DNA from: an uncultured Methanosarcinales archaeon
Lineage (GTDB): Archaea; Nanobdellota; Nanobdellia; Woesearchaeales; JACPBV01
Direction: 5' to 3'
Length of the DNA: 64,000 nt
NCBI GenBank assembly: GCA_964577685.1
Contig: CAZNZT010000001.1
Coordinates: forward strand, 47,978 to 111,977
This document shows, one piece after another, positions 10,211 to 54,830 of the stretch. The translations under genes were made by a program, and so were the position numbers. How positions within the stretch are numbered: position 1 is the stretch's first letter; each line of letters starts with the position of its first letter. The notes below the pieces were generated by a model that was given only the letters and a program-made list of their open reading frames with translations, had not been told where the DNA came from and made no database searches.

Positions 10211-10897
10211 ATGAATAAAGAACAAGTAATAAAAGCACTAAATGAATTAAAGAAGATTTCTAAGAAAAGGAATTTTATCCAGACCTATGATTTAATAATT
10301 AATATGAAAGGTATAGAATTAAATAAGACTCCTGTTGATTTATTTGTAACACTACATCATACAAAGGGGAAGAAAATAAAGGTCTGTGCCTTAGTTGGAC
10401 CAGAATTATTGGAGGAGGCAAAGAAGGTCTGTGATTTGGTTATTTCTGTTGATGATTTCCCAAAATACCAGAATAAGAAGGAAGCAAAAAAACTAGCCTC
10501 TTCATATGATTATTTTATTGCTCAAGCAACAATTATGCCAAAGGTAGCTACTAGTTTTGGGCGAGTATTTGGACCAAGAGGGAAGATGCCAAATCCAAAG
10601 GTAGGTTGTGTTGTTCCACCGAATGTAAATCTAAAGGGGCTATATGAAAAGCTACAAAAAACTGTGAGGTTACAAGCAAAGAATAGTCCAGTAGTACAGG
10701 TAGGTATTGGAAACGAATCAATGAAGGATGAGGAGGTTGTTGATAATATTTTAACAGCCTATGATAGTCTTATACATCATTTACCAAATGGAGAAAACAA
10801 CATCAAGAGTGTTTTTTTAAAGCTCACTATGAGCAAACCAGTGATGATAGGCGAAGAAACAAGAAAGAAAGGAAAAGATAAGGCTAATAAAGTTTAA
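10211..10897 (+). CDS. rpl1: 50S ribosomal protein L1
   Basis: 228 aa, 'MNKEQVIKALNELKKISKKRNF...DLFVTL'. A GGAGGG Shine-Dalgarno-like sequence sits 6 nt upstream inside a small hairpin (ctactctgagagtag). Confidence 0.8.
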   Translation: MNKEQVIKALNELKKISKKRNFIQTYDLIINMKGIELNKTPVDLFVTLHHTKGKKIKVCALVGPELLEEAKKVCDLVISVDDFPKYQNKKEAKKLASSYDYFIAQATIMPKVATSFGRVFGPRGKMPNPKVGCVVPPNVNLKGLYEKLQKTVRLQAKNSPVVQVGIGNESMKDEEVVDNILTAYDSLIHHLPNGENNIKSVFLKLTMSKPVMIGEETRKKGKDKANKV

Positions 10898-10898
10898 A

Positions 10899-12104
10899 AT
10901 GGAAAAAAAGGAAACAAGGGCATCTGAAAAAAAGAAAAGGATAGTTGCAGAATTAGAGAAGTTATTAGTTGAATATCCTGTTATAGCAGCAATAAATATG
11001 GAAAATATGCCAGCACCACAACTCCAACAAATGAGAGCCAAATTGGTTGATAGAATATATCTAAAGATGGCAAAAAAGAGATTGATAAGAATTGCTTTGA
11101 ACAATGTTAAAAATAAAAAGAAAAATATTGAGAAACTTGCTGAATACCTGCGGGGAATGCCTGCCCTTATATTCACAAAAGAAAATCCGTTTTCATTATT
11201 TAAACTACTAAAGAAAAATAAAACTAATGCTCCAGCAAAGCCAAACCAATTAGCGCCTACAGACATTAAAGTCCAGAAGGGTCCAACAGGGTTTGCGCCA
11301 GGACCAATTATAGGAGAATTGGCCCAGATTGGTATAAAGGCTGGTGTTGAAAATGGGAAAGTGGTTATTAAAGAAGACAGCATAGTAGTTAAGGAAGGTG
11401 AAAAGATATCTGCAAAATTAGCTGAGATATTGACTAGGCTAGGGATTGAGCCAATGGAGATAGGATTAAATATTAATGCTATTTACGAAAATGAGACAAT
11501 ATACACCAAAGATATATTAGATATAGATGAAGATAAATTCAGGAAAGACTTAGAAGATGCTGCTAGGTTTGCTTATTATCTTGCTATTGACATAGCATAT
11601 CCAACAAAAGGAACCATAGAAAGACTAATAATTGACGCATTTAATAACGCCAAGCTATTAGGAATAAGCCAAAAGATAATAGATGATGAAGTAATAAACG
11701 AATTATTATGTGAAGCTGAAAAATCAGCATTAAGTATAAAGGATACAGCAAAGATAGAAATTCCTGAAAAGCACAAGAGGGACGAGGAAAAACCTGAAAA
11801 AAAAGAAGTGGCAAAGGAACCTGAAAAAAGAAATGAAAAATCAGATACAGAAAAAAAGATTGAAAAGATGGTAGAAGAAACAAAAAAATTTGTTAAAGGT
11901 GAGGTACCCTCCGCAGATAAGCTTATTGAAGAGGCAAGCAAACTATCAGCAAAAGAGATTCCAAAAGAAGATAAAAAGAAAAAAGAAGACGTACCTTCTG
12001 CTCATCAGTTAAAGGAAAAAATAGAAAAAAAGAAAAAGGAACAAAAGGAAATTGAAAAGCTAACACAAGAATTGATTAAAAAAGGAACATTGAGAAAATC
12101 ATAG
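10899..12104 (+). CDS. rplP0: 50S ribosomal stalk protein P0 (L10) with an unusually long Lys/Glu-rich C-terminal extension
   Basis: 401 aa. Starts 1 nt after the L1 stop. Core 'IAAINMENMPAPQLQQMRAKL...' is followed by a 120-aa K/E-rich tail. Confidence 0.75.
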   Translation: MEKKETRASEKKKRIVAELEKLLVEYPVIAAINMENMPAPQLQQMRAKLVDRIYLKMAKKRLIRIALNNVKNKKKNIEKLAEYLRGMPALIFTKENPFSLFKLLKKNKTNAPAKPNQLAPTDIKVQKGPTGFAPGPIIGELAQIGIKAGVENGKVVIKEDSIVVKEGEKISAKLAEILTRLGIEPMEIGLNINAIYENETIYTKDILDIDEDKFRKDLEDAARFAYYLAIDIAYPTKGTIERLIIDAFNNAKLLGISQKIIDDEVINELLCEAEKSALSIKDTAKIEIPEKHKRDEEKPEKKEVAKEPEKRNEKSDTEKKIEKMVEETKKFVKGEVPSADKLIEEASKLSAKEIPKEDKKKKEDVPSAHQLKEKIEKKKKEQKEIEKLTQELIKKGTLRKS

Positions 12105-12152
12105 TCCAAAAAAGAGAAATATTTATAATAATAAAAATAGGAGGTAGAAAAA

Positions 12153-12467
12153 ATGGAATATATCTATGCGGCTATGTTACTGCATAAGGCTGGTAAAAAA
12201 ATAAATGAGGAAAGTATAAAGAAGGTTTTAGAAGCAGCAGAGGTTAAGGTAGATGATGCTAGGGTTAAGGCTTTGGTGGCTAGTCTAGAAGGTGTAAATA
12301 TTGATGAAGCAATAGAAAAAGCATCTGCTATGCAGGTAACCGCAGTACAGCCAGCAGCAGAACAGGCAACAGAGAAGAAAGAAGAGAAAGCAAAGGAAGA
12401 GAAGAAAGAGGAAGAGAAGAAAAGTGAAGAGCAAGCAGCAGCCGGACTCGGTGCCTTGTTTGGCTAG
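12153..12467 (+). CDS. rpl12: 50S ribosomal stalk protein P1 (L12)
   Basis: 104 aa, '[31 protein letters not shown]'. An acidic hinge precedes the conserved C-terminal 'GLGALFG'. Confidence 0.85.
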
Positions 12468-12531
12468 ATTTAATTTTTAATATTCCAACTAATAATAAGA
12501 ATGAAAATAAAAACAGTGAACGTGACACACT

Positions 12532-13434
12532 ATGCAAGAGGAAAAACCGGGAGAGCTATTTAAAAAGCTAAATGAGCTAAAGAAGGAGGTAACACATTTA
12601 AGAAAAGAGCTCAATCAAATAGATGCTCAAAAGGAATCTTGGTTCAAAAAGAAAGAAAACTATAGTAACCAGATAAAAGAACTAATAAAGAAGATAAAAG
12701 AAAATAAAGAAAAGAGGGATTCTCTTACCTCTAAGGTAAAAGAGGATAAAAAGGTAAGGGATGAACTAAATAATAAGGTAAAGGAAATTATTCTGGAACT
12801 AAAAGAGCTTGAGAAAAAGAAGATAGAAATTTCTAAAAAGCATAAAATAAAAGAAGATCCATCAAAGATTAAAGAGAGGATAGAAGAGTTGGAATTCAGA
12901 ATAGAAACAGAAGGGCTTTCTTTTGAAAAAGAAAAAAAATTAATGCAGAAAATAAAGGAGTTAAAAGAAAAATACAATAAATCAAGGTTGATTAGTGATG
13001 TTTGGGAAAAGATAAACCAAGAATCAGAAAAGATAAGAGAAACAAAAAAGAAGGCAGAAGAGATTCATAAGAGAATACAAAACAGGGCAAATGAAAGCCA
13101 GAAATATCATGAAGAAATCATAAAGCTTTCAAAAGAAATTGATGAGCTAAAGAAAAAAGAAGAAGAAGCTTTTAGCAGATTTATTGAATTTAAGAAAAAA
13201 TTTAATGAGATTAATAGTAAGCTAAAAGAGAGATTAGTAGAATTAAACAGAGTAAAGCAGGATGTAGATAAGATAAAAGAAAAATCAAAAAGAGAGAGAG
13301 AACTAAAGGACATTGAATTAATAAAAACCAAGGCACTGGATATTAAGGACAAAATAAAGAAAGGAAAAAAACTAACAACAGAGGACTTATTAATATTTCA
13401 GAAGATGGAAAAAAGCAACATTAATGAGAAATGA
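12532..13434 (+). CDS. Lys/Glu-rich coiled-coil protein, unknown function
   Basis: 300 aa with heptad-like K/E/L periodicity throughout. The long ORF in an AT-rich genome argues it is real. Confidence 0.4.
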
Positions 13435-20147: not shown

Positions 20148-20729
20148 CTAAAGAAAAAGGGTTATTATCTCGCCTACAAATCCAGAAAAAAGAGGAACAA
20201 ACAAGTTATCTTCCAATTCACTGAGAAAAGTTTCTACAATAGTTGCTGTTAGAGCCATTCCAATGATTGTATATATGTTTGTAATCAGAAAAATACCAAC
20301 AACTAGGTTTACTACTAACTCTGTAAGGCAACCAACAAGGGTTTTATTCTTGAATATTAATGTTTCTCCAAATTTTGTCCCTATAATAGCAGCCGACATA
20401 TCTCCTAGGGCCGTCATTAAAAGAGCAGCTAAAGCTATTCTAAAATCAAAAACAGCTAAACAAATAATTGTGGCTGTTAAGAAATATATTGCAGCACTCA
20501 TCCTAGTCGCTTCTTTTGCTCTGATAAGTTGTTTTACTATCGGAAGTTCTATATTTAATTCTAATCTGATATATTCTATTATTAGTAGAATTAAAAGCAA
20601 AAAAACAAGGCTGATTAAGGCTATTTGCTTTGAAAAAGTTTTTTCTATAATTGAGTAGAAAATTAACACAAAAATGATTGTCATATGAAATGCCTTTCTT
20701 CTAATCTCATGTAGTAATGTCCATGCCAT
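20148..20729 (-). CDS. Polyprenol/dolichol-kinase-like integral membrane protein (COG0170-like)
   Basis: 193 aa, 6 TM helices. 'ALGDMSAAIIGTKFG' fits the D..A...G...G(K) CTP-dependent kinase motif. Confidence 0.4.
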   Translation of the reverse strand: MAWTLLHEIRRKAFHMTIIFVLIFYSIIEKTFSKQIALISLVFLLLILLIIEYIRLELNIELPIVKQLIRAKEATRMSAAIYFLTATIICLAVFDFRIALAALLMTALGDMSAAIIGTKFGETLIFKNKTLVGCLTELVVNLVVGIFLITNIYTIIGMALTATIVETFLSELEDNLFVPLFSGFVGEIITLFL

Positions 20730-20866
20730 AGTATTCCTAAGTATTTGGTCTGAGTTTATAAAATTTCTGATTTGGATTTAAATGTGCATTGCCTATTATT
20801 TTACAACAAGGTTACTAAAATGACAAATAGAAAGTTTTATATATTAATAATATCAGATTAGGGAAT

Positions 20867-21424
20867 ATGGTTAATCAATTTAGGGAAGTTATAGACTTTT
20901 TTGGAGAGATAGGATTATATGATGTTGTATTGCCATTTTTGTTGGTATTCACAATTGTTTTTGCTATTTTAGAAAAAACAAGAGTCTTTGGTACAGAAAC
21001 AATTGATGGAAAACAATATCCAAAAAAAAACTTAGATGCCATGGCTTCTTTTGTTATAGCATTTTTTGTTGTTGCTTCTTCAAAGCTTGTTGAGATAATA
21101 ACTACTGTATCTTCCTATACTGTGTTGTTATTGATGCTTTCTGTTTTGTTTTTATTGTTAGTTGGGTCTTTTATGAAAGAAGGAGAGGGTGTTTTCTTAC
21201 AAGGTGGTTGGAATACACTCTTCATGATTATTATGTTTGTTGGTATAATATTAATTTTTACATATGCAATAGGGTGGTGGGATACATTCTGGGATTATCT
21301 TAGATTCGGAAAGGGGACAGAGGTAACGGGTTCTATTATTTTACTTGTAATCATAATTATTTGTGTTTGGTATATCGTCCAAGGTGAAGGGAGTAAAGAA
21401 ACAAAAAAAGAAGAATCTAAATAA
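20867..21424 (+). CDS. Membrane protein, paralog 1 of a tandem triplet
   Basis: 185 aa. Conserved N-terminal 'DVVLPFLLVFTIVFAILEKTRVFG'. 4 TM helices and a Trp-rich segment 'GWWDTFWDY'. Confidence 0.5.
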   Translation: MVNQFREVIDFFGEIGLYDVVLPFLLVFTIVFAILEKTRVFGTETIDGKQYPKKNLDAMASFVIAFFVVASSKLVEIITTVSSYTVLLLMLSVLFLLLVGSFMKEGEGVFLQGGWNTLFMIIMFVGIILIFTYAIGWWDTFWDYLRFGKGTEVTGSIILLVIIIICVWYIVQGEGSKETKKEESK

Positions 21425-21436
21425 TGAGGTGTTAAA

Positions 21437-22039
21437 ATGGCTACTAGAGCGTATAATCTTGAAGAATTTATTAGGATATTAGATAGTTGGGGATTGACTG
21501 ATGTAATGTTGCCTTTTTTGCTGATATTTGTAGTGATATTTGCATTAATGGCAAAAACTAGGATATTAGGGGAGGATAAAAAGAAATATAATCTGGTTGT
21601 TGCTTTGGTGATATCTCTGTTAGTTGTTATACCCCATGTCTTGGATGTATATCCAGAAGGGGCAGATGTTGTAGAGATAATGAATGAAGCTTTGCCACAG
21701 GTTTCTCTTATTGCAGTAGCTGTTATAATGCTGCTTATATTGATAGGACTGTTTGGTGGAGAGGCTAGATGGATGGGCTCAAGCCTTAGTGGTTGGATTG
21801 CAATAGTTTCTTTTATAATAATCCTAGTAATTTTTGGAGGAGCAGCTGGATGGTGGGGAGACTGGAGTTGGTTTTATAATTTCTTTGGTGAAGAAACAGT
21901 TGCAATAGTAATAATGATATTGGTTTTTGCTATAATAGTTTGGTGGATAACTAGAGGGGAAGGTAAAGAAAAAGAATTAAACGCCTTATCACAGCTTGGC
22001 AAGTGGGTTGGAGATATGTTTGGTGGTAGTAAAAAGTAA
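21437..22039 (+). CDS. Membrane protein, paralog 2 of a tandem triplet
   Basis: 200 aa, 'DVMLPFLLIFVVIFALMAKTRILG', 'GWWGDWSWFYNFFG'. Confidence 0.5.
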   Translation: MATRAYNLEEFIRILDSWGLTDVMLPFLLIFVVIFALMAKTRILGEDKKKYNLVVALVISLLVVIPHVLDVYPEGADVVEIMNEALPQVSLIAVAVIMLLILIGLFGGEARWMGSSLSGWIAIVSFIIILVIFGGAAGWWGDWSWFYNFFGEETVAIVIMILVFAIIVWWITRGEGKEKELNALSQLGKWVGDMFGGSKK

Positions 22040-22041
22040 AA

Positions 22042-22551
22042 ATGGCTACCTTTTTAGATATAACAGCTTTAGAGCATTTTTCTAGTCTTTTTGTTTTTAT
22101 ATTTGTTTGGTTAGTTATTTTCGCAATTCTCTCCTATACAAAAATCTTAGGTGAGAATGTAGGTATTCAAATAGTTATTGGACTGATAATAGCTATTCTT
22201 ACTTTGTTTTCCCCTCTTGCTACAAAGATAATAGAAAATATCGCACCTTGGATAGCAGTTGTCTTTGTCTTTGCAATATTTGCTATAATTGCCGCAAAAA
22301 TGTTTGGTGTGAGTGAGGCAGAAGAGTTGGGTTCTTTAAAATTGATAACATTAATAGTGGTAATGCTTATTATTGTTGTTGGTGTATTAAGCTACATAAG
22401 AGGAGAAATATCTGTGCCTGAAGAAGAAGGAGATATAGATTACAGCAAACCGAGCATTATATTATTTCATCCTAAGGTGATGGGTGCTTTGTTTATTCTA
22501 ATCGTAGCTATATTTGCTATTGTACTTATGGCTGGAAAGCAGTATGTTTAA
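22042..22551 (+). CDS. Membrane protein, paralog 3 of a tandem triplet
   Basis: 169 aa, 'LFVFIFVWLVIFAILSYTKILG'. Starts 3 nt after the paralog 2 stop. Confidence 0.45.
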   Translation: MATFLDITALEHFSSLFVFIFVWLVIFAILSYTKILGENVGIQIVIGLIIAILTLFSPLATKIIENIAPWIAVVFVFAIFAIIAAKMFGVSEAEELGSLKLITLIVVMLIIVVGVLSYIRGEISVPEEEGDIDYSKPSIILFHPKVMGALFILIVAIFAIVLMAGKQYV

Positions 22552-22553
22552 GT

Positions 22554-23177
22554 TCACTTTTTCTTTGTCTTTTGATTAGACTTTATCTTTTGGTCAGACA
22601 TCCTTTGTAGTTTATTGACAGAATCCGTTAAAGAAGGTAGAATCTTAGAAAAAACCTGTTCCATTGCCTTTATCTCTGTCCCAACATTAGTAAGGTGCTC
22701 GTCATATTCCGATATCTTCCCAAGTACGCCTTTATGTAAAGAGTCAAAGTTTGATTTTAGATTGTTTATTTGTTCTTGAATTTTGGTTATTTCAGTAGCA
22801 ACTTGTTCCTTCCATTCAAGAAGTTTATCAATTTCCTTTTTTGCCTCATTCCATTTTTCCTCTACTATTGCCTCTGTCACCTCTTGAATCTCTTCTCTTC
22901 CTACTCCTGTCCCTGGTTGCTGTTGAGGTGGGTACTCTGACGGAACTTCCTGTTCTACTGCTATATTTGCCTGTGGCGGATATTGGAATTGAGGTTGTGG
23001 CTGCTGAGGAAATGGTTGGTACGGCTGTTCTGGAGGATAATCCTGATAATTACCTGGCGGGGTTCCAGAAGTCGGTGGAGGGGTCCCAGAACCAGCAGGA
23101 GGATAATCAAATGACGGGGGTGGTGGCTCTTGAGGAGTATCTGTTGTTTTCTTTTTGCCAAACCCCAAAAAGGCCAT
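22554..23177 (-). CDS. Pro/Gln-rich N-terminal low-complexity plus C-terminal coiled-coil protein
   Basis: 207 aa. 'PPPPSFDYPPAGSGTPPPTSGTPPGNYQDYPPEQPYQPFPQQPQPQFQYPPQ' is followed by the heptad coiled coil 'EKWNEAKKEIDKLLEWKEQVATEITKIQEQINNLK'. The encoding DNA is locally GC-rich. Confidence 0.5.
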   Translation of the reverse strand: MAFLGFGKKKTTDTPQEPPPPSFDYPPAGSGTPPPTSGTPPGNYQDYPPEQPYQPFPQQPQPQFQYPPQANIAVEQEVPSEYPPQQQPGTGVGREEIQEVTEAIVEEKWNEAKKEIDKLLEWKEQVATEITKIQEQINNLKSNFDSLHKGVLGKISEYDEHLTNVGTEIKAMEQVFSKILPSLTDSVNKLQRMSDQKIKSNQKTKKK

Positions 23178-23241: not shown

Positions 23242-23676
23242 CTATTTATCTTTTTCTAGTTTTGCTCCTATTGTTTCTTGGATTACTTCTTGAAGCTCAT
23301 TATGCGTAACAAAATTTAAGGGCTGCCACAATTCAATGTATCTCTGTAAGGTTTTAACATCTTCTTTTTTTGCGAATGAGCCAAGCTCCTTTATTATTAA
23401 TATTATCTTATCCTTGAGTTCTTCTACATCTCTTTTCAATTCGCTTATATCTGATAAGATGGTTTTTATTTCTGTACTCAGAGTTTTATTCTTTCTTATC
23501 ATGTTTTCCTCTGTTATTTTTGTTGCTGTTCGTAAATTTGTATATCTCTCTTCTAGTATCCTTATCCTATCTATTAGACTATTTAATCGTTCTGAAAAAT
23601 CAGAACTCCCTACACCGGGTTTTTTGTTTTTTGATATTAATTTTTTTTGTGGAGGTTTAATTGAAAATTGAACCAT
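23242..23676 (-). CDS. Coiled-coil protein, unknown function
   Basis: 144 aa with heptad repeats ('LIDRIRILEERYTNLRTATK', 'ISELKRDVEELKDKIILIIKEL'). Confidence 0.4.
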   Translation of the reverse strand: MVQFSIKPPQKKLISKNKKPGVGSSDFSERLNSLIDRIRILEERYTNLRTATKITEENMIRKNKTLSTEIKTILSDISELKRDVEELKDKIILIIKELGSFAKKEDVKTLQRYIELWQPLNFVTHNELQEVIQETIGAKLEKDK

Positions 23677-23732: not shown

Positions 23733-24047
23733 TTATCTCAGACGCTGACCACAAAAGTAACAGAAATTCTCATTCCCTCTTAAGGGTGTCCTACACCTAG
23801 GACAATAGCCCAAATGGTTCTTAACGTTTTGGGGTTTATTACCAATATATCCTAGCTCACCTTTAGTTTCTTTTTTTCTATTTATAAACCAGATTAATAT
23901 TTTTGCTATCCCTATCACTAAAAAAAGATAACCAACGAGAACAAAAAACCTTAATCTTCCAGAACCAATTTTGTTTTCTACGTAGTGTGTATAGAATAAA
24001 ACAACAATACCAACTGTCAAGTAAAAAGCTCCATGTATCTTAACCAT
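23733..24047 (-). CDS. Membrane protein with C-terminal zinc ribbon
   Basis: 104 aa, two TM helices, then 'GYCPRCRTPLRGNENFCYFCGQRL'. Confidence 0.45.
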   Translation of the reverse strand: MVKIHGAFYLTVGIVVLFYTHYVENKIGSGRLRFFVLVGYLFLVIGIAKILIWFINRKKETKGELGYIGNKPQNVKNHLGYCPRCRTPLRGNENFCYFCGQRLR

Positions 24048-25443: not shown

Positions 25444-26094
25444 ATGGATATTAGCTGTATAGTAGATAGATTAAACATAACACAGCATCCCTACACGAGG
25501 ATTAATGAATTCTTGAATGGGATATTAACAAGGATTACAGCTCCAATACAAGATGGGGGCTTAGGGTATGATATGGCTCTTTTCTTTTGGCACCAACCTG
25601 TAAGAACAGGCAGACTAAATACGGATGTGTTTGCTTACTATACAGGAAGAGCCCAGATTTGCTCACGAGGAGGAATTGAATCAGCAGAGGAATCCAATAC
25701 TAAAAGGAGATTGGATGAGGTATTAGGTGGTTTATATGTTACTGCAAGTGAGTCCCAGAGTATAAAAGATATAATGGGGTATTTAAAAATAGGGCTTTCT
25801 CCTGAAGAGGAAACATATATGCTTCGCCCTCAAGACCCTGTTCTCTCATTAATAGGAGAAAAAGTTCAGCTAGATGGGCTAGAGGGTGCTGTTGTTCCAT
25901 TTGGAGATGAGCATCCCCCATATGGTATTGTAATAGTAGTTAGTTATTCTGGAGGGAATGGGGTAAGGGGAAATTTAGGAAGCCTTGTTGGACTATTATA
26001 TAAAGCACAATCAATTATGCCTCATTTCAGAGATAGAAAAGAAATACCTCCAGAAATACTTGAACCTATTTTTCAGCCCCTAGGGGTTTCTTAG
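25444..26094 (+). CDS. Hypothetical protein with composition atypical for this window (Lys-poor, Gly/Leu/Pro-rich)
   Basis: 216-aa uninterrupted ORF. Codons still end mostly in A/T, as in the host. I recognise no motif. Confidence 0.35.
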   Translation: MDISCIVDRLNITQHPYTRINEFLNGILTRITAPIQDGGLGYDMALFFWHQPVRTGRLNTDVFAYYTGRAQICSRGGIESAEESNTKRRLDEVLGGLYVTASESQSIKDIMGYLKIGLSPEEETYMLRPQDPVLSLIGEKVQLDGLEGAVVPFGDEHPPYGIVIVVSYSGGNGVRGNLGSLVGLLYKAQSIMPHFRDRKEIPPEILEPIFQPLGVS

Positions 26095-54693: not shown

Positions 54694-54830
54694 TGGGCCT
54701 AGGAGGATTCGAACCCCCGACCTTAAGCCAATCTAGGTTCTCACCTAAGATTTTCAGCTGACCTCCTATTTAATAGAAGGCTGCCGCTCTTTTTGGCAAA
54801 CCCATTGTGTCCAAACTGAGCTATAGGCCC
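54694..54830 (-). tRNA. Intron-containing tRNA gene (137-nt precursor). Probable tRNA-Arg with anticodon UCU. Three non-exonic inserts are inferred.
   Basis: The minus-strand read is GGGCCTA-TA-GCTC-AGTTTGG[20 nt]A-GAGC-G-GCAGC-CTTCTA[14 nt]A-GCTGA-[35 nt including about 30 extra]-GGGGG-TTCGAAT-CCTCC-TAGGCCC-A. The acceptor stem is a perfect 7 bp and the T-arm is canonical. Exons sum to 73 nt. Confidence 0.6.

Follow-up and report, generated by a model that had tools for sequence, protein, structure and literature searches.

A conserved five-gene module of paralogous membrane proteins and coiled-coil proteins in Woesearchaeota-type Nanoarchaeota

What do three small, look-alike membrane proteins encoded back to back in an uncultured archaeon do together? 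The question is raised by a 64,000-nucleotide (nt) stretch of contig CAZNZT010000001.1 (assembly GCA_964577685.1; hereafter the window), a low-GC (about 32%) segment of an archaeal chromosome with housekeeping genes that include those for PCNA, SerRS, topoisomerases, aIF5B and Cdc6. Named homologues assign this segment to Woesearchaeota/Nanoarchaeota (DPANN). An earlier note on this DNA had described a tandem triplet of paralogous membrane proteins that could form an uncharacterized complex. Our analysis places the triplet (genes A, B and C) in a genuine five-gene module that is strongly conserved, specific to its lineage and not described before; two genes for coiled-coil proteins (D and E) complete it. 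The best overall explanation, to which we assign a probability of about 0.4, is that the module specifies one heteromeric membrane assembly on which D and E dock, and which may be accessory to a type-IV-filament-like motor. The features concerned are the following.

20836–20843, plus strand: TATA-like box TTTATATA, read directly from the sequence, 31 nt before the ATG of gene A
20867–21424, plus strand: gene A, 185 amino acids
21437–22039, plus strand: gene B, 200 amino acids
22042–22551, plus strand: gene C, 169 amino acids
22554–23177, minus strand: gene D, 207 amino acids, Pro/Gln-rich coiled-coil protein, convergent with C
23242–23676, minus strand: gene E, 144 amino acids, cytoplasmic coiled-coil protein

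These coordinates agree exactly with the earlier description of three plus-strand open reading frames (ORFs) of 185, 200 and 169 amino acids, separated by 12 nt (A/B) and 2 nt (B/C). The short spacers, the single TATA-like box and a GGTG within the 12-nt spacer before B suggest that A, B and C form a single transcription unit; the box at TTTATATA is a candidate archaeal promoter, from which all three genes would be co-transcribed. The coiled-coil pair had been described as divergently adjacent. It is actually convergent with C, on the minus strand, with D lying tail-to-tail with C across a 2-nt gap, and what diverges from A is a gene for a 193-amino-acid membrane protein. Gene E has its own TATA-like box about 26 to 30 nt upstream.

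The proposed paralogy of the triplet is borne out. Along their whole length A and B are 30% identical (BLASTP E 4e-23, composition-adjusted statistics), and B and C match at E 3e-5 in pairwise comparison, the direct match between A and C being marginal (E 0.013); the C family, represented by an alignment of six orthologues, matches the B-family profile over helices 1 to 3 with an hhalign probability of 96.8% (E 2e-10). This similarity is far above chance, and on sequence grounds A, B and C are true paralogues, with C as the divergent third member and B as the most conserved. The N-terminal motif held to be common to all three, D(V/M)xLPFLL..F..FA(I/L)..KTR(V/I)(F/L)G, is present, as are the GWW(D/G).. 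segment and the GEG(S/K)KE reported for A and B. Spurious similarity comes easily to membrane proteins in low-GC genomes, and it could be argued that the ORFs are not real genes or that hydrophobic compositional bias alone makes them alike. Orthologues of the same order and length in 218 species, with 45 to 88% identity at the protein level, specific invariant motifs and the composition-adjusted BLASTP statistics refute this explanation.

How far does the family reach? Conservation outside this genome, the absence of which had been named as a possible refutation, is strong. A collection of 5.8 billion proteins holds 768 homologues of B and 2124 of A, all of them unnamed or "hypothetical", and the named sources are exclusively Woesearchaeota/Nanoarchaeota (DPANN). 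An exhaustive profile search returned 3110 clusters (50% identity) at E<=1e-3 and 1650 at E<=1e-10; the best 150 of the 3110 are all close orthologues of A or B and clearly of either A type (81) or B type (69). The clean split of these best 150 representatives argues that the triplication is old and predates the radiation of the group. A relative of B is found in 218 species (GTDB, one genome per species). Identity to the six closest genomes is 80 to 88% for B, 68 to 75% for A, 59 to 64% for C, 48 to 71% for D and 50 to 57% for E, compared with 73 to 77% for SerRS; A and B are therefore close to or above this reference, which points to purifying selection comparable to that on a core enzyme. 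One lone representative from the exhaustive search, P0241 (365 amino acids), resembles a fusion of A and B. An error of gene calling or sequencing is the probable cause, since the fusion is topologically awkward (A ends inside and B starts outside) and the frame statistics carry no read-through signal. Read-through joining A and B, which are in frame in the window, was likewise rejected on the even spread of frame offsets (25/33/21). Many module-bearing contigs (loci L009, L012, L016, L021 and others) bear the title "uncultured Methanosarcinales archaeon", in all likelihood a mislabel or placeholder.

Synteny in relatives was examined in 80 fetched loci, all from metagenome-assembled genomes of Woesearchaeota/Nanoarchaeota. 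By scripted count, A, B and C follow each other on one strand in 78 of 82 loci from different species, the remaining loci being truncated. The coiled-coil genes are co-conserved with them: no more than 2.5 kb separate C from a following D in 57/63 loci, and 48/55 loci contain E. In locus L032 all five genes are on the same strand, with spacers of 33 and 56 nt, and the module has been kept together through rearrangement. Three paralogues in a fixed order and tightly coupled indicate that A, B and C would assemble into a hetero-oligomer. The proposed mechanism starts from this point, with A, B and C as putative, anciently triplicated subunits of one integral-membrane assembly limited to Woesearchaeota-type Nanoarchaeota.

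What kind of membrane protein is each subunit? Four transmembrane (TM) helices had been assigned to each, with a short cytoplasmic N-terminus, and neither assignment survives closer inspection. By hydropathy, A, B and C each have an amphipathic helix followed by five hydrophobic segments, and the AlphaFold model of B (mean predicted local distance difference test score, pLDDT, 69.7) concurs, with a helix at residues 8–18 and five more at 20–41, 49–68, 78–112, 117–136 and 152–195. The hydropathy segments of the two better conserved paralogues are as follows.

Gene A, TM helices: about residues 17–35, 60–78, 85–103, 118–136 and 153–171, with the N-terminal amphipathic helix first
Gene B, TM helices: about residues 20–38, 53–71, 89–107, 119–137 and 154–172

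Lys and Arg residues on the odd loops and C-terminal tail outnumber those on the even side by 12 to 2 in B and by 10 to 3 in A, a distribution that, under the positive-inside rule, predicts an outer N-terminus and a cytoplasmic C-terminus. Conserved positions of the A family include G16, D19, V20, L22, P23, F24, E36, T38, G42, K54, N55, E105 and W115. B has two conserved outer loops, PHV..YP..D.V.I.N..LP and FG.AAGWW..W.W, and a basic C-terminal tail ending in ..FGG.KK; in C, which also has five TM helices, the acidic outer loop varies and an FHPK motif preceding the last helix is conserved. Throughout the triplet the TM helices are almost purely hydrophobic and nearly devoid of polar residues, and conservation is concentrated in the two aromatic-rich outer loops, the start of helix 1 (G-L-x-D-V-x-L-P-F), the basic cytoplasmic loops and the tail of B. 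Each subunit would accordingly be built of an in-plane N-terminal helix and five TM helices, with aromatic loops outside and short basic loops and tails in the cytoplasm.

The near absence of polar residues from the helices, together with conservation in the outer and basic loops, favors a membrane scaffold or anchor over a solute pathway as the most likely function of the predicted assembly. The same evidence makes it quite improbable that the triplet is a heteromeric channel, or a transporter of small solutes, with D and E as unrelated neighbors or regulators, a proposal that could draw on the fifteen TM helices in total, on a conserved Asp where helix 1 begins in A and B, on the conserved His/Asp/Asn in an outer loop of B and on a weak profile match (E 0.057) to the 5-TM protein NuoJ.

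That NuoJ match is the best that sequence and profile searches of A, B and C against the PDB returned, and nothing there was significant. No Pfam, NCBIfam, PHROGs or PADLOC family rose above noise for the three proteins. Aggregated Pfam scans of 46 A/B/C members yielded no family at threshold either, with weak and inconsistent matches to Acyl_transf_3 (8/46), DUF2070 (8/46) and AmiS_UreI (2/46). The DUF2070 lead was dropped: B matches this archaeal predicted membrane protein family at E 4e-4 with 19 bits, against a curated cut-off of 30, and no relevant literature was found. DUF2070 and NuoJ are hydrophobic multi-helix proteins like A, B and C, and their sub-threshold, inconsistent scores are explained most simply by composition. 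Literature searches retrieved no description of the A/B/C family, and the absence of a match to any known transporter or pilin family in these searches agrees with the label "uncharacterised" given to the triplet earlier.

Are the three proteins pilins, or do they process them? The earlier note had called the N-terminal motif reminiscent of class III pilin-like signals and at the same time distinct from them. The distinctness stands. The resemblance fails at position -2 to the conserved Gly, which is Ile in A or Trp in B and never Lys or Arg, and the proposed check for a prepilin-peptidase site found a FlaFind-like site in just 8/80 A, 1/83 B and 3/81 C orthologues. A, B and C do share with type IV pilins and class III proteins a conserved Gly followed by a hydrophobic N-terminal helix, and in relatives they have a type IV filament core as a neighbor. 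They differ from them in having four more TM helices and in lacking a globular domain, a basic residue before the Gly and a short leader. A degenerate prepilin peptidase of the PibD/FlaK type (family A24) is suggested by the five TM helices and by two invariant Asp residues of B, D22 and D77, whose positions presumably recall those of the catalytic Asp23 and Asp80 of PibD. Against this, no GxGD motif occurs in the triplet, D77 of B aligns to Lys or Ser in A and is absent in C, and the predicted topology puts the Asp residues of B on the outer side, unlike those of PibD/FlaK. Neither pilin models (Pfam and NCBIfam) nor Peptidase_A24 (PF01478, Pfam) matched even at E<=1. Both the substrate and the peptidase interpretations are essentially refuted.

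The two coiled-coil proteins are the next part of the puzzle. D has no TM helix. It carries the motif MAFLGFGKKK at its N-terminus, then a low-complexity linker rich in Pro and Gln, and at the C-terminus a conserved coiled coil some 110 residues long. In relatives the order is an N-terminal (A)LFGKKK motif, in most cases a putative UBA-like three-helix domain, the Pro/Gln linker and the coiled coil; Pfam scans of D members matched PF24625 (DUF7626) in 28/70 (best 4e-6) and UBA in 2/70 (4.6e-5). The D protein of the window lacks the UBA-like domain of most relatives (MxQQGYxNNQIxQxLQxQGYxxxQIFDAxNQA; e.g., L034 9531–10220 and L046 3612–4283) and has a Pro/Gln-rich stretch in its place. E is a cytoplasmic coiled coil with an invariant C-terminal motif, Y..LW.P..FVT. 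D and E gave generic coiled-coil matches only in Pfam, NCBIfam, PHROGs and PADLOC and nothing significant in PDB sequence and profile searches, and aggregated Pfam scans of 62 E members retrieved no consistent family. That the two are paralogues of each other was rejected (hhalign probability 27%). The C-terminal tail of B (window 21995–22036; ..[DE]xF[GK][GP]xKK, with F195 invariant) resembles the N-terminal motif of D (window 23150–23177; (A)LFGKKK), and the likeness may reflect a shared short binding or membrane-contact motif.

Co-conserved and cytoplasmic, D and E are the obvious partners of the triplet, and the cytoplasmic face of A-B-C is the most likely place for them to dock; the odds that they do so appear to us about even.

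To what, then, might such an assembly belong? Among relatives, 25 of the 42 loci with enough flank carry an ATPase gene at most 7.4 kb away. It is part of a block placed divergently after E that comprises an ORF of 46 to 52 amino acids resembling ribbon-helix-helix (RHH) proteins, a GspE-type ATPase of about 760 amino acids and a polytopic protein of about 720. In locus L046, D and E have been relocated together with the ATPase gene, away from A-B-C, which counts for the proposed assembly. In locus L001 the ATPase (10385–12664) matches PF00437 at 3e-15, Archaeoglobus fulgidus GspE (2OAP) at 6e-28 and the NCBIfam FlaI model at 3.9e-35, as well as CpaF and FlaI, and by sequence it is a bona fide secretion ATPase of the GspE/CpaF/FlaI type. 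The polytopic protein (719 amino acids, L001 12661–14820) has no match in Pfam or NCBIfam; its AlphaFold model (pLDDT 78.3, predicted template-modeling score 0.72) identifies it by predicted fold as a platform protein of the PilC/GspF type. It has at least 4145 homologues, "hypothetical" everywhere, with a mean column identity of 66 to 72%, so that current profiles miss an entire Woesearchaeal platform-protein family. We also considered A, B and C as split-off pieces of this platform protein and rejected the idea (hhalign probability 0.1%). The short ORF (MKKPISATIDEELIxWI...YRNKSHLIEIALE) lies directly upstream of the ATPase gene in L005 (13010–13156), L088 (6271–6429), L089 (6566–6715), L090 (6320–6460) and about 20 other loci, and its sequence pattern looks like that of an RHH regulator. 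In 13 loci the platform gene is not followed by any conserved pilin-like ORF, and the 64-kb window contains no class III-like ORF. Two hallmarks of a type IV filament machine, a GspE/PilB/FlaI-type ATPase and a GspF/PilC/TadC-type platform protein, are found in relatives and not in the window.

The ancestral gene order would have been the five-gene module beside a pilin-less core of RHH regulator, GspE/FlaI-type ATPase and PilC/GspF-fold platform protein, for which the module may act as an accessory or stator-like component peculiar to the lineage. Membrane and coiled-coil accessory proteins confined to single lineages are frequent in archaeal loci for type IV pili and archaella, and nanoarchaeal type-IV-pilus ATPases without identifiable pilins have been noted earlier (Makarova et al. 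2016, PMC4858521); taken together, these observations make an accessory role for the neighboring motor plausible. Like A-E, the accessory proteins described there (for example arCOG07564 of subclade 4F and the ArlX/ArlCDE scaffolds) are small polytopic and coiled-coil proteins encoded beside a GspE/FlaI-type ATPase gene and a PilC/TadC-type platform gene within one lineage. A-E differ from them in that no sequence similarity was detected and in that the module persists away from the ATPase genes, including in the window. That survey describes no triplet of paralogous 5-TM proteins, and the link to A-E is one of gene context. The module is probably an accessory variant allied to archaeal type-IV-filament systems, without a detectable family-level relative, and a functional link of A-E to the ATPase machine itself we hold to be doubtful, though worth entertaining.

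Several observations weigh against an accessory assembly of this kind. In the window and its closest clade, E is followed by a zinc-ribbon membrane protein and SerRS, and no ATPase/platform pair occurs within the 64 kb. A marine clade carries the ATPase block without A-E nearby, L088 is, beside the window's clade, a counter-example to linkage, and five loci carry A-B-C without D or E within 7 kb. Synteny in the region is broadly high: 51 loci have a divergent Translin gene upstream, and the platform gene is followed by a conserved OB-fold gene, so that adjacency to the ATPase could be inherited gene order and is weak evidence of a functional link. Finally, the model of B is only moderately confident, and a fold relationship could have been missed.

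That the module persists without an adjacent ATPase/platform pair, for instance in the window and its clade, is also what would be expected if A-C with D and E formed an envelope, cell-division or cytoskeleton-tethering scaffold unrelated to the secretion ATPase, in which the coiled coils link the membrane to an internal structure and the aromatic outer loops contact the S-layer or a host surface. The housekeeping surroundings of the module (PCNA, SerRS, Translin, AspRS) fit such a scaffold, and so does the layout of D, with its N-terminal basic-aromatic motif, long Pro/Gln linker and coiled coil, which we take to resemble that of membrane-to-cytoskeleton tethers such as ZipA. Yet no FtsZ, SepF or Cdv gene lies near the module in any locus examined, and neither sequence nor fold comparison linked A-E to known proteins of division or the envelope. 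We regard this alternative as rather unlikely and retain the heteromeric A-B-C assembly with docked D and E, possibly serving a type-IV-filament-like motor, as the explanation that best accounts for the locus.

Two neighbors flank the module in the window.

20148–20729, minus strand: 193-amino-acid polytopic membrane protein, divergent from gene A
23733–24047, minus strand: 104-amino-acid protein with two TM helices and a C-terminal zinc ribbon, after E

The site of the first is usually held by the Translin gene in relatives. The 193-amino-acid protein has no Pfam match, and its motif LGDMSAAIIGTKFGE is, we assume, akin to those of the CTP-dependent polyprenol kinase and CDP-archaeol synthase families. 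The zinc-ribbon protein after E also occurs in the closest clade (L009, L012–L015 and L025), at the site that the ATPase operon occupies in other lineages. Further along, between SerRS and a 71-amino-acid ORF, a 216-amino-acid ORF at 25444–26094 (plus strand) lies in a GC-rich island (40 to 42%, against about 27 to 30% in the flanks). The ORF has no match in Pfam, nor the region in Rfam even at E<=1; a structured RNA not yet described, or a gene that is unusual or of foreign origin, could lie here. At 54694–54830 (minus strand) Rfam recognizes a tRNA with 40 bits, and ARAGORN finds no tRNA anywhere in the window; the 137-nt span of this match suggests an intron.

Woesearchaeota and their DPANN relatives are uncultured and abundant, are presumed to need other cells, and have a surface biology that is mostly unannotated. 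B is among the most strongly conserved membrane proteins of the lineage, above SerRS, and nevertheless has neither a Pfam family nor a name. Should the module turn out to be merely a lineage-specific scaffold, it would still merit the definition of a new family and would leave current concepts unchanged. The module may also help explain the nanoarchaeal type-IV-pilus ATPases that lack identifiable pilins (PMC4858521). A bolder proposal, which we consider improbable, is that A-E supply the membrane and cytoplasmic portion still missing from a pilin-less nanomachine specific to Woesearchaeota and driven by the GspE-type ATPase and the PilC-fold platform. Were this true, the type IV filament superfamily would contain, or have given rise to, a new architecture, and host-dependent uncultured archaea might use such a nanomachine for cell contact or uptake rather than for conventional pilus assembly.
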